Source: an uncultured virus (IMG/VR IMGVR_UViG_3300006149_000009) | Lineage: Duplodnaviria; Heunggongvirae; Uroviricota; Caudoviricetes | Length of the DNA: 20,000 nucleotides | Direction: 5' to 3' (one strand) | IMG/VR virus record: IMGVR_UViG_3300006149_000009 | Part shown: piece by piece, positions 708 through 12,532 of the stretch | Layout of the letters: every line of letters begins with the position of its first letter | How positions within the stretch are numbered: position 1 is the stretch's first letter | Notes under the pieces: model-generated | The model's database searches: none | What the model saw: only the letters and a program-made list of their open reading frames with translations | Told to the model about the DNA's origin: nothing | Program-made: the position numbers and the translations under genes

Positions 708-1142
708 ATGGCATGTGTATTTGATGTAGCAAAATACATCCTTTGTCAATGTGGGAAAATGAGCACATGGAAACTCCAAAAGTTGTGTTACTATGCACAG
801 GCGTGGCATCTTGCGTGGACAGGTAATCCCATCTTCGCAGAAGATTTTCAGGCGTGGTCAAATGGCCCGGTATGCCCTGAATTATTCCATGCGCATCAGG
901 GGAAATTCTCTGTTGATATACAAGATATCATTAAAGGAGACGATAACAGCCTGAACGACGACGAAAAAGAATCAATTGATATCGTCCTTAATGGATACGC
1001 AGGCAGAGAACCTTATGACTTAAGGGAACAGACTCATGAAGAATCGCCCTGGAAAGATGCAAGAGGTGATTTACCGGATGGTGCACGATGCCAGAACGTA
1101 ATCACTAAATCTTCTATGGGGGAATACTATGGAAGCTTATAA
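708..1142 (+). CDS. Panacea-domain (DUF4065, SocA/GepA-like) antitoxin
   Basis: Contains the DVAKYIL...KLQKLCYYAQAW...F.AW..GPV.PELF and TH.E.PW motifs characteristic of the family. Confidence 0.9.
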   Translation: MACVFDVAKYILCQCGKMSTWKLQKLCYYAQAWHLAWTGNPIFAEDFQAWSNGPVCPELFHAHQGKFSVDIQDIIKGDDNSLNDDEKESIDIVLNGYAGREPYDLREQTHEESPWKDARGDLPDGARCQNVITKSSMGEYYGSL

Positions 1143-1145
1143 TCT

Positions 1146-1598
1146 ATGGCAAAGAAAATTTTAAAACAAAACAGAAAGCGCCATGAAAAGAAGATATCAG
1201 GCGAAATCAAAAACACTGATAGAGAGTGTCCCGTATGGGTATTTACAGATATAGACCGTTCAGGTAAGTTTGCATTTGATTTATCCCGGGATGATTTTGA
1301 ACATAAAGAAGTTCTTGAAAAGATGATTCATTATTCAAATATGACTTGGGCTGACATCAAAAAACAAACACATGATAATGGGAAATCAAAGCATCATTTA
1401 ATAGATTACGAGAAAATGTCTAAAGATGCGCAAGACAGACTAAAAGCAAAACATATGGAAGATGACAGCGACAGCATGTTCTCATTTGCTTTTAGAAACC
1501 TTTTGCGCATTATTGGAATTCGCAGAGGAAGAATGTTTCATATTCTCTGGTATGACCCTCTTCATGAGATATGCCCTTCTCAGAAGAAACACACATAA
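1146..1598 (+). CDS. Putative toxin partner of the Panacea antitoxin (possible RelE-like ribonuclease)
   Basis: Starts 3 nt after the antitoxin stop. It has a basic N-terminus and a C-terminal FSF...RIIGIR...FHILWYDPLHEICPS segment resembling RelE-type beta strands. The fold is inferred. Confidence 0.6.
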   Translation: MAKKILKQNRKRHEKKISGEIKNTDRECPVWVFTDIDRSGKFAFDLSRDDFEHKEVLEKMIHYSNMTWADIKKQTHDNGKSKHHLIDYEKMSKDAQDRLKAKHMEDDSDSMFSFAFRNLLRIIGIRRGRMFHILWYDPLHEICPSQKKHT

Positions 1599-2106: not shown

Positions 2107-3819
2107 TTAGCAAAGTGCTTCCTTTTTCCCAAATCGTACCTCACAGTCTTTCCGGAAAAACGACACCCCATAACAGTCTATGTTCCGATACCCCTCTGTG
2201 CGAAGCTCTTCCCTATATCTTTTTTCATATATCTGCTGCAATGCCTTTTCTGCATCGCTCTCCAAATCATCAATAGAATCTGATACCTTGACTTCCAGAA
2301 CAAATGACCTGCCCCGCAAAGAAGGGCTTCTCACCATAATATCAGACCTCCCGTACCCCGATTCCCGGTTGGATTTAACCAGATAATTTTCACTCTGACT
2401 TAAAATGCCAGTAAGAAATCCATGATAAAAATTTTCTGCGCTATCGTAAAAGCTAATGGTATAAGCAAGCTGCTCAGTCAGTATATTTGTCATCCTCTTC
2501 GCATTTCCATCTTCCAGTGCCTGGTACAAATCATGAAAGTTTTGTTTCTTTATTGTATTCTTAAACCAATTAAGAATCGTGTTCTGATAGACCGTCTTCA
2601 CTTCTATATTCGGAATTCGTGCCCGTAAAAAAACTGATGTCTCTTCGAAATATTCGCTTTCCTTCGTCAGATACCCCGTAAAGTAAAGAAAATTCCACAA
2701 ATTCTCATCACTGCTGTACATGTCCCCATAAGTGACTTCCTCATGAACCTGGATATCAAGAGTCTTTCCGCTCAAGAGCGCTTCAATCTGCCCCTTCGTT
2801 TCCCTATCAGCCTTGGCTATCATATCTTTAATAATATCATTTGAACTGGTATTAATCCAATATGGACGCGGAAATGCGTTGACGTCCGAATATAAATCAT
2901 ATAAAAACTTAATAACACTCCACGGGTTGTAAACCTCTGTATCTCCAAATAAATATCCGTCATACCATTCTTTCATTGTCGAAAAGCGGCTTTCTACTTC
3001 ATAATAGGACATCATTTGGCTCACTTCTGATTCTGTAAATCCAAAATGCTCACTGTACTTTTTATCAAGCACAGAAATAATGTTCAGATGATTCAACCCG
3101 GTAAATATACTCTCTTTTGAAATCCTCAGGCACCCAGTAATAACCGCAAACTGCAAATACTGATTTGTCTTTAAGGCAGCTTCAAACAACGAACGGATAA
3201 AGCTGACCATCTTTTCATAAAAGCCTCTAAAATATGCATTTTCTAATGGCACGTCGTACTCGTCAATTAGAATAACTGTATTCTTGCCAGTAATTTTGTA
3301 CATACATTGGCAGAAAAGCCGCAAAGAATTTCTTATTGCTTTTTCCTCACCCTGCCCCTCCGCAATATCAGTATACTCTTTATATTCTTTGTTGGATAGA
3401 CATTCTTTCCCGACTTCTATAATGCTCCTGTGCCTTTCAAACTCCGTGCTAACTGCATTTTGTATCATGTAATAAGCCATATCGTAGTTTTCCTGTTTCG
3501 CCGATTTCAAAGTCAGCTCAAACACAGAATACATTCCCATCTGGTTTGTGTAGCTTTCCCCGGCTTCCATAATCTTCATCCCCTGAAAAAGTTCTCTATT
3601 TTGCTCATTTCTTTTTTCGTTCCCGGTATCCTCAAAAAAATATCGGAGCATACTCATATTTAATGTTTTTCCAAAACGTCTTGGACGTGTAAATAGGTTC
3701 ACTTCCCCTTTCAAATCAAGTAATTCCTTAATCAGCATAGTCTTATCGACATAACAATAGCCATCTCTTATTATCTTCTCGAAATTGTCAACACCTACCG
3801 GCAATGGCTTCCTCATCAT
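2107..3819 (-). CDS. AAA-ATPase-like protein with a C-terminal PD-(D/E)XK nuclease domain (AAA-ATPase_like + PDDEXK_9 architecture)
   Basis: YVDKT, Walker A RPRRFGKT, Walker B ILIDEYD, WYDGY and YNPWS motifs; nuclease [11 protein letters not shown]...LEVK...ALQQI. A GGAGGT RBS is present. Confidence 0.92.
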
Positions 3820-3888: not shown

Positions 3889-5592
3889 CTATACAGCCTC
3901 ATACTGACCGCCCCCAATCAATACCTGTTTCCCTTGGAACGCAAACCCATACTTCCGAATTTTCTCTTTAGGGATTCCCTTCTCTATCAACGATACCTCA
4001 TACTGTTTCCTGTCTATCTGTTTTAAAGCTTCCTGCACAGTATCAGAAAGTTCCTTCTCATCCTCTGAATCCCGCACCTTAAACTCCAGAATGATTGCAT
4101 CATCGCCTTTTTCCCTAGGCTCCAGCATCACATCATACCGTCCGAAACCACTTTCACGGTTCGAAGTCAGGATATATCGGTCAGTCAAATCCACCATCAA
4201 CCCTAGGACAAAACCATGATAGAAACGCTCAGGCTCTTCCTCTGAGGGCTTTTTCCCAGTATCAAAATAACTAAACGTTGCCAATGCTACTTTGTTCATA
4301 TATACATTCATTGCCTTCAAATCATTTACTAAAAGTGCATTAATGAAATCATTGTAACTATCACTGTATTCTGTAAACCAGTCTTGAATCATCCCTTCAA
4401 ACATAATCTTCACTTCTTTATTTGTTAATGCTAGATAATAATAAACCCTCCCTGTGCGCTCTACAAATTCCGTCCTAACCGCTTTCAGATAGCCGCTTGC
4501 CAGCAGGAGGCTCCAGATAGTACTTTCTTTTCCTGTAAGCTGGTCATATAGAATTTGTTCGTCTATCTGCGCCTTTAGGATTCCCCCTTGCAACATCCGT
4601 TCAAATTCCTGCTTTACTTTTTTATTCCCCTCACGCAAAAGCTTCCCGGCCAGACTGTTAGAACTGGTATTTGCCCAGTATGGCCGAAATTGTCTCGTAT
4701 CCAGCAAATTGATAATAGACCACGGATTGTAAATGTCTGTCAGACTGCCAAAAGTAAACCCGTCATACCAGCTTTTTACATCCTGTTTCTTATTCGACAA
4801 ACCATATTCATCCAGTGCCGCAAATACTTCCTCCTCTGTAAATCCGAAACTGTCTACATATTCCTCCGAAGTGGTAGTCACCACTTTCAGGTTATTTAAG
4901 TCAGAAAAGATTGACTCTTTACTAACTCTTGTTATCCCCGTCATCACTGCACGTTCCAAGTATGGGTTCGTCTTAAATGTAGAATTAAACAAACTCCTTG
5001 TAAACTCGGCAAGCTCGTTCCAATACCCATTCACATAGGCTTCCTGCATAGGCGTATCATACTCGTCTAAAAGAATAATCACTTTCTCCCCGTAATAGCG
5101 GTACAGATAATCAGAAAGCATTTTTAAAGAAAGAGTCGCCATATAATCTTCCATCTCAGCAGAAATTCTGCAGAAATCTTCTTTTTCTCTGCTGTTGAGC
5201 ATATCTCCCTCAAGCAAAAAATCAAACTTGTTATATAATAACTGGATAATCTTACAAATCTTTTTCCGCGCTCCCAAAAATGTTGTTTCCTTCACATCAG
5301 AAAAACTAAGTGCTATAACTGGATACTTCCCCTGCAATTCCCTGTACTTCCCCTCTTGCCATATAAACAGCCCCTCAAACAAGTCACCCCGGCCTACATA
5401 TTTTACAGAAAAGAATTGTTCCAACATGCTCATATTCAATGTCTTCCCAAATCTTCTCGGTCGGGTAATTAGAGTTACACTATCCCCTCTTTCCCACCAT
5501 TCATGAATGAATGCTGTTTTATCTACATAAAAATAATTTTCTTTCCGAATCGTCTCAAAATCCTGATGTCCTATTCCTACTGTCCTTAGCAT
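3889..5592 (-). CDS. Second AAA-ATPase-like / PD-(D/E)XK nuclease paralog
   Basis: Same motifs: [41 protein letters not shown]...LEFK...ALKQI. Start moved to the ATG at 5592 (MLRTVGIG) because a GAGGTGG RBS precedes it and the 5661 start overlaps the promoter. Confidence 0.92.
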   Translation of the reverse strand: MLRTVGIGHQDFETIRKENYFYVDKTAFIHEWWERGDSVTLITRPRRFGKTLNMSMLEQFFSVKYVGRGDLFEGLFIWQEGKYRELQGKYPVIALSFSDVKETTFLGARKKICKIIQLLYNKFDFLLEGDMLNSREKEDFCRISAEMEDYMATLSLKMLSDYLYRYYGEKVIILLDEYDTPMQEAYVNGYWNELAEFTRSLFNSTFKTNPYLERAVMTGITRVSKESIFSDLNNLKVVTTTSEEYVDSFGFTEEEVFAALDEYGLSNKKQDVKSWYDGFTFGSLTDIYNPWSIINLLDTRQFRPYWANTSSNSLAGKLLREGNKKVKQEFERMLQGGILKAQIDEQILYDQLTGKESTIWSLLLASGYLKAVRTEFVERTGRVYYYLALTNKEVKIMFEGMIQDWFTEYSDSYNDFINALLVNDLKAMNVYMNKVALATFSYFDTGKKPSEEEPERFYHGFVLGLMVDLTDRYILTSNRESGFGRYDVMLEPREKGDDAIILEFKVRDSEDEKELSDTVQEALKQIDRKQYEVSLIEKGIPKEKIRKYGFAFQGKQVLIGGGQYEAV

Positions 5593-5668: not shown

Positions 5669-5698
5669 AAGCCCTGAGGATTTTCCGCCTCAGAGCTT
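5669..5698 (-). terminator. Hairpin downstream of the recombinase gene; probable terminator
   Basis: AAGCcCTGAGG-attttccg-CCTCAGaGCTT stem with one mismatch and a short U-rich tail on the - strand. Confidence 0.55.
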
Positions 5699-5711: not shown

Positions 5712-7289
5712 CTATTTGATTCTCCATATTAACCGTTCTATTTTGTTACTCCTGTATGTACAGGAGTCACTAATCAGAACGTTCTTGCTCAGCCCTAAGT
5801 CGCCTAACACCCGCATATAAATATCAATATTCCCTTCCTTATCCACTTCTATCTTTTGAATAATCTGCTTTAGCTGTTCATTAGTCATATCACGGACTGA
5901 AGTAATATCTTCCATATTTTTAAACGTTTTCTGTATAATGTTCTCCAACTGGCTGCCCTTGTCCAGATTGTGCTCCACTAGCTTCAAGTCATTTTCCAGC
6001 CGCTCTATCTCTTTTTTCGTCCCGCCAATTCTCTTATTCAGCTCTTCACGGCTAATCAGGTCATCCATATACATATCCATATACTTCTGGCGGGTTTTCC
6101 TCAACTTCGTCAGGCTATCCTCTAACTCTTTTCTGTAGTTTACATTTTCATCCTTCTCTTTATAAATTTTTGAAAACTCCTTCACCAAATACTCGGTAAC
6201 TTTCTTCTTCGATTTCAGCATTTGGGCGAAGTAGCACTCCAGCTCCAGAATCAACTCCTCTTCATCCAGCGTTACAGCATTTGGACAGCTATCTACCCCC
6301 TTACCATTACGCCCGGAACATACCCAGCGGACATAGGTATTTTTATATGTACGAGCTGTTCGCCGGAATGACCATCCGCATTCCTTACATTTAATTAATG
6401 TACTAAATAGGTATTTATTGCTCTGCCTCTCCCTATTCATACGGAAAGCCCTATGCCTGCCCGTTAAAATTTCCTGCGCTTTGTCAAACTGTTCTTGTTG
6501 GATAATGCACAAATCCGGCCTGTCTGTCACCAGCCACTCTGCCTCATCCTTATCCTTTCTTTCTCCTGTTAGAAAATCTGCCACTTCCTGCTTCCCATTG
6601 ATGATTTTCCCTGTATAAAGCTCGTTTGTCAAAATCCTACATATGGCGTTCTGGCTCCAGCGGCTATTCCGCTTTGTCCTAGACCCTCTTTCATTTAACA
6701 TGCTTGCAATTTTTGACGCGCCATAACCGCCTTCCGTATACCAGTCGTAAATCTGGTGGATAATCCTTTCCTCTTCTTTGTTGATTTTCATGTCGAAATA
6801 TTCTCCGGAAATTTTATCATAGCCGTAGACAATATTCGGGACTCTGCCTTTTTCCGCATTCATTTTCTTTCCAAACTTAATACGCTTTGAAGTATTTGCG
6901 CTTTCCTCCTGCGCCAGCGCCCCAAAAATAGTCAGAACAAACTCCGACTGCCCTAACACGGTCATATTGGCTGTAAGAAACGTCATCTCAATCCCCAATG
7001 CCTTTAATGTACGGACGCTCTGTAGCAAATCCACCGTGTTTCGTGCAAATCTGGAGATATCCTTGACTACTACCATATCAAACATGCCACGCTTCGAGTC
7101 CTCCATGAGCTGTTGGAATTCTTTTCGATTCTTGATTTTTGTACCGGAAATCCCTTCATCCGCATATACTCTTACGAGCTTGTGGCCATTTTTTTCTGTA
7201 TACTCCTGGAAAAATTTCTTCTGCGTTTCAAGGCTGTTTATCTGGTCACTTTTATCCGTAGACACCCTACAGTAAGCAGCTATATTCAT
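5712..7289 (-). CDS. Large serine recombinase (integrase)
   Basis: Catalytic YCRVST, DEGISG, KDISRFARN; recombinase domain YGY...ILTNELYTG; zinc ribbon CKECG...C...C; coiled coil. A GAAAGG RBS is present. Confidence 0.95.
   Translation of the reverse strand: MNIAAYCRVSTDKSDQINSLETQKKFFQEYTEKNGHKLVRVYADEGISGTKIKNRKEFQQLMEDSKRGMFDMVVVKDISRFARNTVDLLQSVRTLKALGIEMTFLTANMTVLGQSEFVLTIFGALAQEESANTSKRIKFGKKMNAEKGRVPNIVYGYDKISGEYFDMKINKEEERIIHQIYDWYTEGGYGASKIASMLNERGSRTKRNSRWSQNAICRILTNELYTGKIINGKQEVADFLTGERKDKDEAEWLVTDRPDLCIIQQEQFDKAQEILTGRHRAFRMNRERQSNKYLFSTLIKCKECGWSFRRTARTYKNTYVRWVCSGRNGKGVDSCPNAVTLDEEELILELECYFAQMLKSKKKVTEYLVKEFSKIYKEKDENVNYRKELEDSLTKLRKTRQKYMDMYMDDLISREELNKRIGGTKKEIERLENDLKLVEHNLDKGSQLENIIQKTFKNMEDITSVRDMTNEQLKQIIQKIEVDKEGNIDIYMRVLGDLGLSKNVLISDSCTYRSNKIERLIWRIK
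5734..5781. mobile_element. Candidate attP-type serine integrase attachment site inside the 3' end of the recombinase gene
   Basis: Perfect 9-bp inverted repeat ACTCCTGTA-[TG]-TACAGGAGT (5748-5767). Symmetry on the same axis extends to CGTTCT (5734-5739) / AGAACG (5776-5781). Confidence 0.7.
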
Positions 7290-7336
7290 ATCTGTATACC
7301 TTTCTATTTATTTTGTCGCACTCTGTCACTGCTTGT

Positions 7337-7365
7337 ATTGTAAGCTACGTAAACAAAAAAAGCAA
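7337..7365 (-). promoter_or_regulatory. Sigma-A-type promoter of the recombinase
   Basis: On the - strand: TTGCTT, 17-bp spacer, TACAAT. The -35 overlaps the upstream terminator. Confidence 0.6.
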
Positions 7366-7395
7366 GAGAGAATTGGATAAACGCTCTCTCCTGCT
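7355..7395 (-). terminator. Rho-independent terminator after the AT-rich cargo genes
   Basis: On the - strand: AGCAGGAGAG...CTCTCTTGCT stem running into a T tract. Confidence 0.7.
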
Positions 7396-7417
7396 CTGTA
7401 AGCTAACCTTTTATCTC

Positions 7418-7876
7418 CTAAAATCTATTCACTTCCTTTAAATATTCTGTAGCCTTTTCATTAGCAGATTTGAAATCAACTTGGGGCAATACTTCTTCAA
7501 TGTAATCTTTTAGGGAAATTTTTTTACTATTAATCTTTATCTCGATATCTGTCTTTTTCGTTAAGTTTCCGTTACTTAATTTGTCCAACACAATTATACA
7601 CTGTGCCTTCTCTTCATCACCAATTCTATCAAATATATTAAGTAACTCCAGTGATTCTTTAGCTCTTTCGCTACTTCTTTCTTCGATTTCCTTTTTGTAC
7701 TCTTCTTCACTTTTAAATTTTTTACCTTCTTGTTTAATCAAATTCTTTTGAGATTGCTTTAAACATAGTTCATACGCTTTCCCCATTAATTCTTTTTGAT
7801 AATCATCATCCAATTTTGAAAACAGCATTATCAATTCTTTTACTTTATCAGGATTAATATTCATCTCATTCCCCAT
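7418..7876 (-). CDS. Hypothetical all-helical charged protein with an internal repeat
   Basis: 152-aa ORF in AT-rich DNA, 25 nt downstream of the membrane protein gene. Two similar segments: ELIMLFSKLDDDYQKEL and ELLNIFDRIGDEEKAQC. Confidence 0.75.
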   Translation of the reverse strand: MGNEMNINPDKVKELIMLFSKLDDDYQKELMGKAYELCLKQSQKNLIKQEGKKFKSEEEYKKEIEERSSERAKESLELLNIFDRIGDEEKAQCIIVLDKLSNGNLTKKTDIEIKINSKKISLKDYIEEVLPQVDFKSANEKATEYLKEVNRF

Positions 7877-7901
7877 TATAAAAAAACAACACTTTACTAA
7901 T

Positions 7902-9248
7902 TTATTTTTCTTGATTTACGAAGGCTTCCCAATCATTAAACTTTATACGATTATAAAATACCATACCAAAATATGCAGACAGAAATGCAATAAATGTTAT
8001 TATACAAACATATACCATATTAAAAATGTTCATTTTATACCATACTAAAATAGAAGCTGAAAAAATGAAAGCAATTCCAGAAGTTAATTTGACTCTAGGT
8101 ATATTATTTACAATCCTTTGTTTTACTCTAAATATATGTGTATAATTTATAGTTCGCTTTTCTCTGTCGTTTATTATTTCTACATTATACTCATATGTTC
8201 CTCTTGCTATATCAAGTGAATGTCCATCTAATATGTTTTTATATTCTAACAAATCTGGAAATTTTCGTTTTAAACTCTCATAATTTTTTTTATTATACGA
8301 CGCCGAAATGTATACCCCCATGTCATTAATTTTTTTATCCATTATATTTCCAAAAATCAAGCTAATAACATATAAAATAATTGTAGTGATAGCAAATATC
8401 ACTGGAATTATTTTAGGCGAATCTTTAAGTCCAAACCAGTATTTTATTTTCTCATTATCCCCCTCAATAATAATTGTAATAATAATTGATAATATATTTG
8501 TCGTAATGGTAGAGATTTTCAAAGTTAATAAATAATTCTCATATCTATCGCGATGCATATATAAAATTTTCTGTAAATATCTCATGTCTTCTAACCGCTT
8601 TACTTTATCAAAAGAAATTTTACTTTTATGCCTTTCCGAAAAAACGTTGGAACCACTCTTATTTACAATTATTTGATAAGCAAAAAAATCTAACATTATA
8701 AAAAAATAAAGAATCAATGATTCCCACGCTAATAATATGGGAAAATTCAAATTGCATATAAACAAAATAATAACAGCAACGCTAACCATAACTAGTGCCC
8801 CAATAAATAATATATAACTTCTAATGACCTCTCTTTTATTATGAAGGGTAACCCTCTTTCCTCTTTTGATATTATCTTTGTATATATCCAGCGGAGATAT
8901 TAATTGCTCTGCCTTAATTTTATATCCATTTACAATTTCTGAAGGTGATTCATCATTTAATGCAGACAAATAATCTTTAACTATGTTCTTTTTTTTCCTA
9001 GTACTTTCAGAATTAATTAAAGCCATGATAACTGACAGCATAAATACAACTAATTCAATCATTGAAGGTGTTATATTCCAAAAACAAATTTTTTCATTAG
9101 AACTAAATGTACTCATAAAAACATATATGGTACAAACACCCATAGCAATAATTTCCAATAAAACTAAAAGCACCTCATGTATTCTCAACTTTTTTAATTT
9201 AGCAACGTAAACCGTTAAACTCTTTTCTTCCACTTTAACCCCCTTCAT
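7902..9248 (-). CDS. Hypothetical polytopic membrane protein (about 8 TM segments); true start may be the GTG at 9233
   Basis: A 448-codon ORF in very AT-rich DNA is unlikely by chance. It has four pairs of hydrophobic segments separated by basic loops. An AAGGGGG RBS-like sequence precedes the GTG. Confidence 0.8.
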   Translation of the reverse strand: MKGVKVEEKSLTVYVAKLKKLRIHEVLLVLLEIIAMGVCTIYVFMSTFSSNEKICFWNITPSMIELVVFMLSVIMALINSESTRKKKNIVKDYLSALNDESPSEIVNGYKIKAEQLISPLDIYKDNIKRGKRVTLHNKREVIRSYILFIGALVMVSVAVIILFICNLNFPILLAWESLILYFFIMLDFFAYQIIVNKSGSNVFSERHKSKISFDKVKRLEDMRYLQKILYMHRDRYENYLLTLKISTITTNILSIIITIIIEGDNEKIKYWFGLKDSPKIIPVIFAITTIILYVISLIFGNIMDKKINDMGVYISASYNKKNYESLKRKFPDLLEYKNILDGHSLDIARGTYEYNVEIINDREKRTINYTHIFRVKQRIVNNIPRVKLTSGIAFIFSASILVWYKMNIFNMVYVCIITFIAFLSAYFGMVFYNRIKFNDWEAFVNQEK

Positions 9249-9415
9249 CTAAAAGCAACATTTTAAAGCTATAAAATCTTTTCCATAATATTATAATATC
9301 ACTAAGATGATAGTAAATCAACAGGCTTCTGGTTTTTATATTACTAACACAACATTCATAAAACTTAATATCTTTGTCTTCTTTTCTATTCCTTCAGAAA
9401 CGCATATTACACCGA

Positions 9416-9441
9416 AAGCCGCTACACTCCTGCAGCGGCTT
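9416..9441 (-). terminator. Hairpin after the small ORF; probable terminator
   Basis: On the - strand: AAGCCGCTGCA-ggag-TGTAGCGGCTT with a weak U tail. Confidence 0.6.
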
Positions 9442-9454
9442 CCTATCTTTTCAT

Positions 9455-9610
9455 TTATTCATTACAGGCGCACTTCAATACCTCTTCTTTCAAGGCCTGT
9501 TCAAGCTTCTTTTTATTCGCCTCCATCAGTACCTTGATTATGTAATCAGCCGTGACTTCTGGCGTATTTGGATTATGAAAACGATAATTCAACTTTTTCT
9601 TTTTAGAAAT
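9455..9610 (-). CDS. Small 51-aa protein with probable ATT start; candidate recombination directionality factor; not in the ORF track
   Basis: AAGGGAGGTG RBS, 6 nt, then ATT. Protein is (M)SKKKKLNYRFHNPNTPEVTADYIIKVLMEANKKKLEQALKEEVLKCACNE*. An in-frame GTG at 9619 overlaps the RBS. I recall LNYRFHNPN-type small proteins upstream of clostridial serine recombinases, but this is unverified. Confidence 0.75.
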   Translation of the reverse strand: MSKKKKLNYRFHNPNTPEVTADYIIKVLMEANKKKLEQALKEEVLKCACNE

Positions 9611-9649
9611 AGCGGCCACCTCCCTTTTACTGCCCCTTTGCGTTTCTCT

Positions 9650-9678
9650 AACTTATGAAGCGAAATCCTGAAATAGTC
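9650..9678 (-). promoter_or_regulatory. Possible sporulation sigma-E (or sigma-K)-type promoter
   Basis: On the - strand: GACTATT, 14-bp spacer, CATAAGTT. The Bacillus sigma-E consensus is (G/T)(A/C)ATAxx-N14-CATAcaxT. Confidence 0.4.
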
Positions 9679-9726
9679 CTAAAGTTCGTCCGAAAAGTGA
9701 TTCAATTCATTTTACAGCCATGCTTG

Positions 9727-10275
9727 TCAGGAATGGACACTTTCCCACCTATTCCCGTCCTCCCATAATATAATCCTGCCAGCCTTTCTAGTCTTATCCA
9801 TATTAATTATCCTCTGATTTGATGACCCCCGGAACTTCAACATAATATCCGCCAGCTCATCTATATATTTTCCTTCCACAAGCACGTCTATCATCCCCAG
9901 GAAGTCATCTGTAGTCCCGCATCGGCAGTGTTCTTTATCATCCAGCAACTTTTCAAGTGTATATCCTGTATAGCACCATACATCTTTATCCGGGTATGTA
10001 CTCCTGATGCGGCGAAGCAGCCGCAGGAGCACGGGCTGGTTCTCTGGCTCCATTGGCTCTCCTCCCAGTAAAGTTATCCCTTGGATATATGGTCTGGATA
10101 ACAGTTCCATAATATGTTCTTGCGTTTCCTTCGTAAACAATGTCCCATACTGAAAATTCCATGTCTCCGGCTGAAAACAATTCTTACAATGATTCCTGCA
10201 TCCTGATACAAAAAGTGATACCCGGATGCCCGCCCCATTTGCAATGTCAAGGTCTGCTATCTTCCCATAATACAA
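9727..10275 (-). CDS. nrdG: Anaerobic ribonucleotide reductase activase (radical SAM)
   Basis: DIANGAGIRVSLFVSGC, CxxxCxxC (CRNHCKNC), LLGGEP and FRGSSNQR motifs. Start set at the TTG at 10275, just after the nrdD stop. Confidence 0.95.
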   Translation of the reverse strand: MYYGKIADLDIANGAGIRVSLFVSGCRNHCKNCFQPETWNFQYGTLFTKETQEHIMELLSRPYIQGITLLGGEPMEPENQPVLLRLLRRIRSTYPDKDVWCYTGYTLEKLLDDKEHCRCGTTDDFLGMIDVLVEGKYIDELADIMLKFRGSSNQRIINMDKTRKAGRIILWEDGNRWESVHS

Positions 10276-10276
10276 T

Positions 10277-12532
10277 TTACTCACCGCCCCCAAGATGCAC
10301 GTAACGTTCTTTGATTTCCTGCGTCCTTCCCTGGTTCCAGTCATTCGTGCCGATATACCCGCAAGTCCTGCGTGCGATATTCATTTTACTTTTGTCTCTA
10401 TTCCGGCAATAGGGACACTCCCATATAAGTTTCCCATCCTCATTCTCAACAATGGAAATCTCCCCGTCATACCCGCATACCTGGCAATAATCAGACTTTG
10501 TATTCAGTTCTGCATACATGATATGCTCATATATGTACTGCATAACCGCGAGTACAGCATCAACATTTCCATTCAAATTCGATGTTTCAATATAAGAGAT
10601 TGCTCCTCCAGGGCTTAACAACTGAAACTCTGCCTCAAATGCCAACTTTTCAAAAGCATTGATATGCTCCGCCACATGCACATGGTAAGAATTCGTGATA
10701 TATCCTTTATCCGTAATACCCTCAATTACCCCAAAACGTTTCTGCAGGCTCTTTGCAAACTTATATGTTGTGGACTCCAGCGGAGTCCCATACAGAGAAT
10801 AGTCGATATTCTCTGCCGCTTTCCATTCCCGGCATTTATCATTCATATACTGCATAACACGCAACGCAAACGGTTTTGCCTCTTCGTCCGTGTGACTCTT
10901 CCCGGTCATAGCCTTTACGCATTCGTACAGTCCGGCATATCCAAGAGAAATGGTAGAATATCCGCCGTAGAGCAGCCTGTCAATCGTCTCTCCCTTTTTC
11001 AGCCTTGCCAACGCACCATTCTGCCAATGGATTGGCGATGCATCTGATAACGTCCCAAGCAGCCTTTCATGCCTAAGGCGCAATGCCCTGTGGCACAGCT
11101 CCAGCCTTTCCTCAAAAATCCTCCAGAAAATTTCTTCCCTCGCATCCGCCCACTGTTCATCGTCCACATATGCACCCCCGTCTGTAGCCATCCTCTGTAT
11201 GGCAGACAGCGCTACATCCGGAAGGTTGATTGTTACAACGCCCTGATTAAAGCGGCCATAATATTTAGGTTTCCCATTTTCATCTACATACGGGGTCAGG
11301 AATGACCTGCATCCCATACAGGTATAACAATGCCCCTCACCATTCTTGTCAACTTTATTCTGGAGCATGATTTTCTCTGAAATGTAATCCGGCACTAGCC
11401 TCTTTGCAGAACACTTTGCACACAACTGGGTCAGATACCAATACTTGCTGTCCGGCGTAATATTATCTTCTTCCAAAACATAAATCAGCTTCGGAAATGC
11501 CGGGGTAATCCATACACCCTTCTCATTCTTTACGCCCTCATACCGCTGTCTTACCACTTCCTCAATAATCATAGCGAGGTCATTTTTCGTCTGCTCATCC
11601 CGGACTTCATTAAGATACATAAATACCGTAATGAATGGTGCCTGCCCATTTGTGGTCATCAGCGTGACAACCTGGTACTGTATAGTCTGTACCCCTTTGC
11701 GTATTTCCTCCCGCAGCCTTGCATCAACTATATTCATGTATTCCGATAGTTCAGCCTCACCCTGAGGTTCGCACCCAGTGAACGCAATGTATTCTTCCAT
11801 TACCTGTTGCTTAATTTTCTGGCGGCTTATATCAACAAACGGCGCTAAGTGCGCAAGGCTGATGGACTGCCCGCCATACTGGTTCGATGCCACCTGTGCC
11901 ACAATCTGCGTAGCCACATTGCAGGCGGTGCTGAAACTGTGGGGCTTTTCAATCATCGTATCTGAGATGACTGTCCCATTCTGGAGCATATCCTCAAGAT
12001 TAATCAGGCAGCAGTTAAACATGCGCTGCACAAAGTAATCTGAGTCGTGGAAGTGGATGATTCCCTCATCATCCGCATGGCGGATATCCTTTGGGAGCAA
12101 AAGGCGGGCTGTCATATCACGGCTTACCTCCCCAGCGATATAGTCCCTCTGTGTCGACTGGATGGCTGGATTTTTGTTGGAATTCTCCTGAATGGCAACC
12201 TCATTCACACCATCAACCAATGTCAGAATCTTCCCGTCTATCGTACTGCTGTTCCTCATCATTTCATGTTCGTGCCTGTACCGGATGTACGCCTTCGCGA
12301 TATCATACGCCTGTTCCACCATAAGTTCCATCTCAACATCATCCTGGATTTCCTCAACAGACAGTGCCTGGCTCCTTTCCCTGTACCGCGCATCCAGCCT
12401 ATCGGACACTAATACGGCAATATTTTGATACCCGCTGTCGCCAGTCACTTCTTTTACCGCCTTCTCAACTGCAGTTTGTATTTTACATTTCTTATACCGC
12501 TCTTCCTGGCCATTTCTTTTAATTACAATCAT
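10277..12532 (-). CDS. nrdD: Class III anaerobic ribonucleoside-triphosphate reductase
   Basis: N-terminal ATP cone (VIKRNG), IHFHD, NCCL, MGCRS, GRFNQGVVTINL, C-terminal zinc site CQVC...CPYC and glycyl-radical loop RRTCGYI. Confidence 0.97.
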   Translation of the reverse strand: MIVIKRNGQEERYKKCKIQTAVEKAVKEVTGDSGYQNIAVLVSDRLDARYRERSQALSVEEIQDDVEMELMVEQAYDIAKAYIRYRHEHEMMRNSSTIDGKILTLVDGVNEVAIQENSNKNPAIQSTQRDYIAGEVSRDMTARLLLPKDIRHADDEGIIHFHDSDYFVQRMFNCCLINLEDMLQNGTVISDTMIEKPHSFSTACNVATQIVAQVASNQYGGQSISLAHLAPFVDISRQKIKQQVMEEYIAFTGCEPQGEAELSEYMNIVDARLREEIRKGVQTIQYQVVTLMTTNGQAPFITVFMYLNEVRDEQTKNDLAMIIEEVVRQRYEGVKNEKGVWITPAFPKLIYVLEEDNITPDSKYWYLTQLCAKCSAKRLVPDYISEKIMLQNKVDKNGEGHCYTCMGCRSFLTPYVDENGKPKYYGRFNQGVVTINLPDVALSAIQRMATDGGAYVDDEQWADAREEIFWRIFEERLELCHRALRLRHERLLGTLSDASPIHWQNGALARLKKGETIDRLLYGGYSTISLGYAGLYECVKAMTGKSHTDEEAKPFALRVMQYMNDKCREWKAAENIDYSLYGTPLESTTYKFAKSLQKRFGVIEGITDKGYITNSYHVHVAEHINAFEKLAFEAEFQLLSPGGAISYIETSNLNGNVDAVLAVMQYIYEHIMYAELNTKSDYCQVCGYDGEISIVENEDGKLIWECPYCRNRDKSKMNIARRTCGYIGTNDWNQGRTQEIKERYVHLGGGE

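Follow-up and report, generated by a model that had tools for sequence, protein, structure and literature searches.

A spoIIID-targeting serine integrase unit on a full-size phage resembling SPbeta and c-st

The window, that is the whole stretch of 20,000 nucleotides analysed here, is part of a single virus record (IMGVR_UViG_3300006149_000009; 119,039 nt, estimated to be 98% complete) and holds, between phage modules, a serine integrase gene, a phage attachment site (attP), cargo genes and a small open reading frame (ORF). An original prediction had read this arrangement as an element interrupting a sporulation gene in the manner of skin and SPbeta, and the ORFs, the Pfam matches and an inverted repeat confirm that every listed part is in place. 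Comparison with host genomes showed that the integrase family splits spoIIID, a mother-cell sporulation gene, in frame; the target of the window phage itself is deduced from its attP. The presence of a spoIIID-targeting integration unit on a full-size phage is real and well supported. The features at the centre of the argument are the following:

5712..7289, minus strand: large serine recombinase (integrase), 525 aa in the attP form (PF00239, PF07508, PF13408; PHROG 95 integrase)
5712..5756, minus strand: 14-residue integrase tail, codons 512-525 plus stop, which exists in the excised (attP) state only
5734..5781, no strand: attP, two 23-nt arms P (5759-5781) and P' (5734-5756), an inverted repeat inside the integrase 3' end
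5757..5758, minus strand: crossover dinucleotide CA, from junction alignments; in attB, bases 1 and 2 of codon His37 of spoIIID

The integrase, its attP and the split spoIIID gene

The integrase has the Resolvase, Recombinase and zinc-ribbon domains of Pfam and is the sole large serine recombinase (LSR) of the 119-kb genome, its class being further marked by S10, four cysteines at 301-335 and two long helices at residues 379-461 in the fold model. Serine integrases use an attP of about 50 bp, in which inverted arms surround a 2-nt core and an outer motif is shifted by 5 bp relative to the bacterial site (attB). In the window the arms are 83% complementary and lie 2 nt apart, and P' has a 5-nt spacer between its GTAAC and GAACG blocks that is missing from the B' consensus, in line with the 5-bp offset. 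The crossover CA is invariant in 33 of 33 P' arms. A profile built from host junctions alone (68 attR and 27 attL) gave the window attP 58.6 bits, against -6.3 for the best other phage site and -13.6 for the best attB-like site. With an unbroken repeat, and with no piece of spoIIID anywhere in the 119-kb phage, the window represents the free, attP state.

Host loci were collected with a 27-sequence alignment as the query, the best 80 of 586 host loci being taken together with 14 viral loci; 92 loci were examined overall. Among the best 120 of 7,048 protein matches, identity to the integrase was 74-82% (69% in one partial match), and most of these relatives end at the residue matching T511. In 66 of the 80 host loci (68/92 overall), and in 39 of the 45 with at least 65% identity, the integrase gene runs straight into the spoIIID 3' half; among the 14 host loci lacking an adjoining 3' half are cases of intervening DNA (L007), of inverted orientation, of a contig end and of an intact spoIIID at another place. 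Aligned with Pfam SpoIIID, two 5' halves cover positions 1-36 and three 3' halves positions 37-81, with neither gap nor overlap. Two of the checks proposed with the original prediction, inspection of the host genes flanking integrase homologues and reconstruction of attB, both led to a sporulation gene, which is spoIIID and not sigK.

A whole-genome spoIIID search of the 80 hosts returned a full-length match in 3 (G006, G039, G216), none in 1 and partial matches in the rest. When both halves lie on one contig (31 hosts), the gap between them is 2.0-55 kb, with a median of 12.6 kb. In a related element on a contig of run X3, 33 of 35 nt of P' are matched before the contig departs from the window at 5761, and the reverse complement of what lies beyond reads, on translation, as the spoIIID 5' half. 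Splitting a mother-cell sporulation gene in frame is a mark of the sporulation-gene-intervening elements (skin, SPbeta, gin, yin), as are a directionality factor under a mother-cell sigma factor and excision confined to the sporulating mother cell. In C. difficile, spoIIID is under sigmaE control (PMC3789822).

The prevalence of the split gene was counted by hand in 151 genomes drawn evenly from the family to which the L007 host belongs. SpoIIID was matched in 97 of them, 79 full-length and 18 as halves only; with the centre genome excluded, 17 of 96 had halves only (13 of these with both halves), which corresponds to about one sixth of the Lachnospiraceae species representatives with spoIIID, although incomplete assemblies may inflate or hide some cases. 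Tandem spoIIID 5' halves, each with promoter and attL, were also seen on one contig (L108:1638, 8326 and 13163; two sites in L105), and in L037 the integrase is followed by a hybrid site resembling attP (L037:9629) and then by another AAA gene, which marks a tandem of two elements.

The excision-specific tail of the integrase

Because attP lies inside the integrase ORF, the integrated gene would stop at residue 511 and the excised gene would gain 14 residues. The stop of the integrated form is supplied by the host His-Lys codons: an in-frame TAA right at the junction ends the integrase in 52 of 68 attR, and 11 read on because their His codon is CAC. Read in the attP frame, the P' arms add exactly 14 residues in 19 of 33 (15/28 host attL, 4/5 phage attP), with tryptophan at 522 in 20 arms and isoleucine or valine at 524 in 22; the stop codon at 526 is TAA in 11, TAG in 7 and TGA in 2. 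For host attL, the 15/28 observed compares with a mean of 1.0 and a maximum of 7 in 2,000 trials in which the bases beyond the arm were shuffled, a count in which the junctions are not independent. The same pattern recurs outside the 33-arm set (L031 arm, protein P0106), and L242 has an attL that keeps the tail intact, next to another prophage's lysis genes. Synonymous variation argues for selection on a protein that host elements would make only after excision. Read-through of the spoIIID 5' half and the third frame were considered as sources of the conservation and rejected, since lengths are scattered there.

An excision-added 14-residue integrase tail, conserved in host junctions, appears to be new, as a literature search with most subscription papers outside its reach returned no serine integrase with a tail encoded by its att site. 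The tail cannot act as a plain block to integration, because the tailed form is the one that an infecting phage has to use. The preferred role, put forward tentatively and with slightly less than even confidence, is that of a degradation signal limiting re-integration, for which the repressor tail of mycobacteriophage BPs provides a precedent (PMC4557955) and which would be compatible with infection as well as with excision in the mother cell. A possible, rather doubtful alternative is a docking element that modulates how the directionality factor binds. A tail strand blocking the site of the factor was also considered; in the fold model, residues 499-525 have a predicted local distance difference test score (pLDDT) below 50, with the tail in only 4 of 58 alignment rows, which speaks neither for nor against docking.

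The candidate directionality factor and its expression

Upstream of the integrase and cargo genes lies a small ORF with its own predicted signals:

9455..9619, minus strand: 54-aa candidate recombination directionality factor, basic, pI 9.2, proposed from co-occurrence and a complex model
9650..9678, minus strand: SigmaE-type promoter, -35 GACTATT (9672-9678), 14-nt spacer, -10 CATAAGTT (9650-9657)
9414..9443, minus strand: terminator-like hairpin after the small ORF (z -3.8)

The 54-aa ORF has a homologue in 55 of the 80 host loci, and in 39 of the 49 with at least 6 kb upstream, against 1 of 136 control loci, the exception being G054 itself. In an independent scan for the ORF, all 4 non-self viral matches were recombinase-bearing contigs. 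The family has 3,174 database members, with no Pfam domain in the 120 listed; for the 54-aa protein no known family was found in Pfam, PHROGs, NCBIfam, PDB or the Atlas, nor any solved structure resembling it by sequence. Complexes of integrases with such factors are known. Directionality factors promote recombination of attL with attR and inhibit that of attP with attB.

Modelled together with integrase residues 280-511, the 54-aa protein gave a complex score of 0.73, against 0.00 for the best control; the complex-score mark is reached by 116 of 157 solved pairs and 2 of 215 mismatched pairs, counts that are only roughly valid with the alignments used. The runs share at least 82% of contacts, with a partner pLDDT of at least 73. 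The modelled interface is the junction of the zinc domain and the coiled coil (integrase contacts 339-375, 451-476 and 485-496), and residues 10-18 of the small protein pair with integrase 486-493, where the fold model has a strand at 487-492. Verified factors bind this same junction, often adding a beta strand, and false positives from complex modelling have been reported (both PMC12286644). Within the model the 54-aa protein occupies the site at which directionality factors bind, and its predicted binding to the integrase is supported.

The SigmaE-type promoter is the best such site in the 20-kb window, at 24.0 bits against 11.5 for the next, by a profile built without the window. SigmaE and sigmaK promoters have a common -10 and differ at the -35, with ATA for sigmaE and AC for sigmaK (PMC3789822). 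The strict sigmaE pattern occurs in 12 of 54 small-ORF upstream regions (1.3 expected), and a relaxed pattern allowing CTA, chosen after the data had been seen, in 34 of the 54, window included, against 2.2 expected in shuffles, with the 14-nt spacing fixed. The sigmaK pattern was found in none of the 54, so that of the sigma-E/K-like promoter claimed earlier only the sigmaE part stands. The same geometry is present in 19 of 26 host spoIIID promoters, 4 of them with CTA. As SpoIIID activates sigK in C. difficile and B. subtilis (PMC3789822), sigmaE alone is also the logical trigger of excision.

A SpoIIID-box-like motif, whose consensus was not found in print, occurs in 22 of the 54 small-ORF upstream regions against 5.7 expected, often right after the -10 (for example in L008, L013, L020 and L023); the window is without it. 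Restored SpoIIID could, on this pattern, shut off the factor. No terminator was found in the 108-nt gap from nrdG to the small ORF, which would allow lytic read-through into the latter, and read-through at lytic induction has been shown for sprB of SPbeta (PMC4191935).

The signals placed around the integrase gene are:

7337..7365, minus strand: SigmaA-like integrase promoter, 17-nt spacer, 8/12 matches, at a position common to homologues
7319..7333, minus strand: degenerate half-site of attB type in the leader of the integrase gene, 29 nt ahead of the ATG, which is the modal distance (0.8 bits)
7359..7397, minus strand: hairpin plus T-run between cargo and integrase (z -4.0)
5669..5698, minus strand: terminator-like hairpin after the integrase stop (z -3.3), its function putative

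The sigma-A-like promoter that had been assigned to the integrase is borne out by homologous leaders, 45 of 87 of which reach at least 9/12 SigmaA matches against 10.4 in shuffles, and less so by the window copy at 7337-7365, whose 8/12 falls below the promoter scanner's threshold. An attB-type half-site after the -10 box recurs in 28 of 87 integrase leaders (L004-L092), against 0.95 in shuffles, and in 1 of 54 small-ORF leaders, which suggests a putative operator for autorepression by the integrase.

The phage, rival explanations and known systems

The 119-kb record encodes terminase, portal, tape-measure and tail proteins, DNA polymerase III, primase, nrdD-nrdG and an RNA-dependent RNA polymerase (RdRP)-type polymerase. 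Large SPbeta/c-st-like siphophages are marked by a size above 100 kb, their own DNA polymerase III, primase and RdRP-type polymerase, and a long tape measure, all of which are found here. Among named phages, the RdRP-type polymerase has its best relatives in c-st (40%) and Enterocloster phages (38%), followed by SPbeta-like phages (26% across half of its length). The likeness to SPbeta and c-st, as judged from these genes, is a resemblance and implies no taxonomic assignment. The integrase region is present in 20 of 24 listed sequencing runs, from 11 studies and mainly from mouse gut; 14 carry a flag as possible sources of the window DNA. On one side the unit is flanked by phage replication genes, and on the other by two AAA/PD-(D/E)XK genes, then late-strand genes; its cargo and neighbours are:

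9727..12532, minus strand: nrdG-nrdD, the end of the phage replication gene run (Pfam)
7902..9248, minus strand: cargo ORF, 448 aa, hydrophobic segments, 27% GC; sub-cutoff SLATT match only, no informative Atlas match
7418..7876, minus strand: cargo ORF, 152 aa; no Pfam, NCBIfam or PADLOC match, 113 homologues
3889..5592, minus strand: AAA-ATPase / PD-(D/E)XK gene adjoining P' (Pfam)
2107..3819, minus strand: second AAA-ATPase / PD-(D/E)XK gene (Pfam)

The cargo ORFs have 27-29% GC against 45% for the replication genes, and searches of Pfam, NCBIfam, PADLOC and the Atlas assigned them no function; the three named relatives of the 152-aa product are Lachnospiraceae-type hypothetical proteins. 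A sister contig (L213), 99.6% identical over 6.2 kb, has other genes replacing the 448-aa cargo. The AAA gene adjoining P' has homologues of 63-67% identity in L007, L031 and L037, which follow attL in small host elements. Elsewhere, a Panacea-domain antitoxin gene (window 708-1598, plus strand) followed by a 150-aa ORF forms a probable toxin-antitoxin pair (Pfam, PHROG). In the whole genome (G000) the portal is split over two ORFs (L120:1713-3597 and L120:3569-5681), each matching half of one PHROG, and the terminase region is likewise two ORFs, with frameshift, intron or assembly error as candidate causes. Three ORFs of about 290-310 aa with a common N-terminus lie far apart in the genome (two copies in L123, one in the L122 region), in both orientations.

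Other viral contigs carry the same recombinase and attP, namely L084, L085 and L088 (63, 56 and 45 bits) and L086 (about 20 bits); the first three have few other genes in common with the window phage within 10 kb. G054, an incomplete genome (86.5 kb, 54% complete) with tape measure and RdRP-type polymerase, ends in attR and the spoIIID 3' half; 13 of 87 checked ORFs match between it and the window phage, integrase included, and it is a distant relative integrated at spoIIID. Among IMG/VR loci found with the two spoIIID halves (26 and 33), this recombinase stands at a 3' half in L222 (identical to L087) only, and L218 has other recombinases. Intact spoIIID homologues without a recombinase are found on many viral contigs (L216-L274; phage vB_CpeS-CP51). 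In phages with a related nrdD, the slot beside it holds what appears by eye to be a different serine recombinase (L137:15300-16826, L140:15343-16869 and L143:13615-15120) or, in others, a tyrosine integrase.

In an integrase tree of 89 rows (L002, L066 and L092 left out), the window groups with the mouse-gut Lachnospiraceae elements L006 and L007 (Shimodaira-Hasegawa-like approximate likelihood ratio test, SH-aLRT, 97), which suggests Lachnospiraceae as the host family. The tree gave no sign that phage rows cluster (5 changes, a number no higher in 68 of 500 shuffles; only 2 are required by starred branches), a result that allows repeated exchange. The findings are compatible with, and no proof of, recombination-unit exchange of the kind described in PMC6957869.

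The preferred reading, given a probability of about 0.8 as a full model, is that the unit is a working integration-excision kit of a temperate SPbeta/c-st-like phage, seen in its free form, with a mouse-gut Lachnospiraceae host and spoIIID as its target. The recombinase would join attP to attB at the CA with which the His37 codon opens and so split the gene, the site being taken from comparison and the integration of this phage itself being deduced. The integrase would be made from the sigmaA-like promoter, and the 54-aa protein, by binding the zinc-domain/coiled-coil junction as modelled, would switch it to excision. In the mother cell the sigmaE promoter, as the presumed source, would drive the 54-aa protein, leading to excision and restoration of spoIIID; at lytic induction, read-through from the nrdD-nrdG run would probably supply the same protein, as for sprB. 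To this extent the skin/SPbeta-like model survives, with a sporulation-gene-intervening unit, a sigmaA-driven integrase and a candidate small factor, predicted to be under a mother-cell sigma by a promoter motif with which co-occurrence and complex model agree, as its supported general outline, and loses the target that it named.

Several observations weigh against this reading. No attL or attR of the window phage was found, contigs spanning an intact attP in all 4 runs examined (assembled contigs were compared, which drop rare forms), and a scan of a metagenome collection for either arm returned only one more attP and one unrelated comM junction, the latter from an element whose arm (L212:4001-4023) matches the degenerate 23-nt attP pattern. 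None of the 31 same-contig host elements exceeds 55 kb, and 52 ORFs from larger host elements yielded no virion-protein family in Pfam, giving sugar-use, acyl-transfer, helicase, kinase and AAA families and one YqaJ-like domain. Moreover, 10 of the 49 host loci with at least 6 kb upstream have no detectable small-ORF homologue, 13 of 28 attL junctions lack the 14-residue tail, the L086 phage attP has an immediate stop, the window -35 is CTA and not the canonical ATA, the relaxed promoter pattern was a choice made after the fact, and the phage also encodes a 271-aa tyrosine-recombinase-family protein (G000:C1:58302-58823). The last is possibly a regulator, as in SPbeta.

One rival explanation is that the phage took up the excised circle of a small spoIIID element as a passenger, and either does not integrate or does so through its tyrosine recombinase. 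The gene order is a circular permutation of that in L007, where attL, AAA gene, small ORF and integrase follow one another, L006 and L007 are the integrase's neighbours in the tree, the unit lies near a related nrdD in 0 of 77 viral loci, attP is the sole form seen, and a tyrosine recombinase is at hand. However, the unit is intact in its integrase, both arms, tail, small ORF and promoter, it stands between the replication arm and the late arm, G054, itself at spoIIID through the serine unit, encodes a homologue of the tyrosine recombinase, and an origin by capture is compatible with present use; the passenger explanation is held to be unlikely. Still less probable is that spoIIID is targeted while excision is stochastic or stress-induced only, with the small ORF expressed otherwise. 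The window promoter does fail the strict ATA rule at the -35, and excision of the yin element was seen at every time point (PMC10747680), but the two-box motif with fixed 14-nt spacing is far more frequent in homologues than in shuffles, host spoIIID promoters have the same geometry, CTA variants included, and hosts with halves only need excision for SpoIIID production. As for sigK, the target originally proposed, only the minus-strand ACATA and the existence of phages at sigK, PhiS63 among them (PMC3442830), speak for it. ACATA is indeed present across the repeat, but it comes from the spoIIID Val-His codons (GTA CAT A) and not from a sigma-factor motif; a sigK-like motif lies within 600 nt of the integrase stop in 0 of 92 loci, and the spoIIID 3' half is there in 68 of 92. 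Host junctions, Pfam halves and the attP profile together refute sigK, which is left with a negligible probability.

A broader proposal, for which the odds are judged a little short of even, holds that this is a widespread gut-clostridial system in which splitting of spoIIID creates a sigmaE-only checkpoint upstream of sigmaK, that recombination yields two integrase isoforms, one from integrated and one from excised DNA, and that the tail, as a degradation signal or as a modulator of the directionality factor, enforces one-way mother-cell excision and sets the lysogeny window after infection. The sporulation, and hence the transmission, of many gut commensals may depend on spoIIID recombination. 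Full-size phages of several unrelated lineages provide the vehicles missing from small chromosomal elements; integrase, attP, attB and candidate directionality factor form a ready-to-test set, and the tail points to a control layer of serine integrases not found in print.

A literature search for spoIIID-interrupting elements, with most subscription papers outside its reach, returned a single sentence (bioRxiv 10.1101/2022.02.25.481979) on a skin-like element of Ruminiclostridium cellulolyticum, whose target is also spoIIID; it concerns one genome, and site, factor, promoter and phage are not described in the part available. Other targets or none are named in the accessible portions of PMC5025042, PMC5595907, PMC10747680, PMC13141910, PMC10083194, PMC12823448 and PMC3442830. 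The LSR cluster26 of PMC10083194 has a representative with the same N-terminal sequence, for which NA is entered as target genes; neither SpoIIID nor PF12116 occurred as a string in 8 supplement files, and a string search of the supplements of PMC12286644, PMC10083194 and PMC6957869 yielded only a family representative without target.

The closest parallel is SPbeta of B. subtilis (spsM; SprA, SprB), likewise a large phage whose serine integrase splits a mother-cell gene and whose small factor, encoded where a phage operon ends, has a sigmaE/K-type promoter of its own with an imperfect -35 (PMC4191935); the two phages also share the distant kinship of their RdRP-type polymerases. In SPbeta, however, the target is a spore-surface enzyme rather than a regulator, SprB is acidic (PMC5025042) whereas the 54-aa factor is basic, and a recombination-dependent integrase tail was not found in the available text of PMC4191935. 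The C. difficile skin element (CD1231, CD1234) similarly has a sigmaA-driven recombinase at its edge and a factor under sigmaE (PMC5025042), and its recombinase has the same three Pfam domains. It differs in targeting sigK, in its acidic 72-aa CD1234, which needs SpoIIID as well as sigmaE (PMC5025042), a requirement that an element splitting spoIIID cannot have, and in being defective, whereas the window unit sits on a near-complete phage. In mycobacteriophage BPs, attP also lies in an ORF whose free form has a longer C-terminus, but that ORF is the repressor, the integrase is separate and the tail is a proven ssrA-like tag (PMC4557955); here the ORF is the serine integrase itself.

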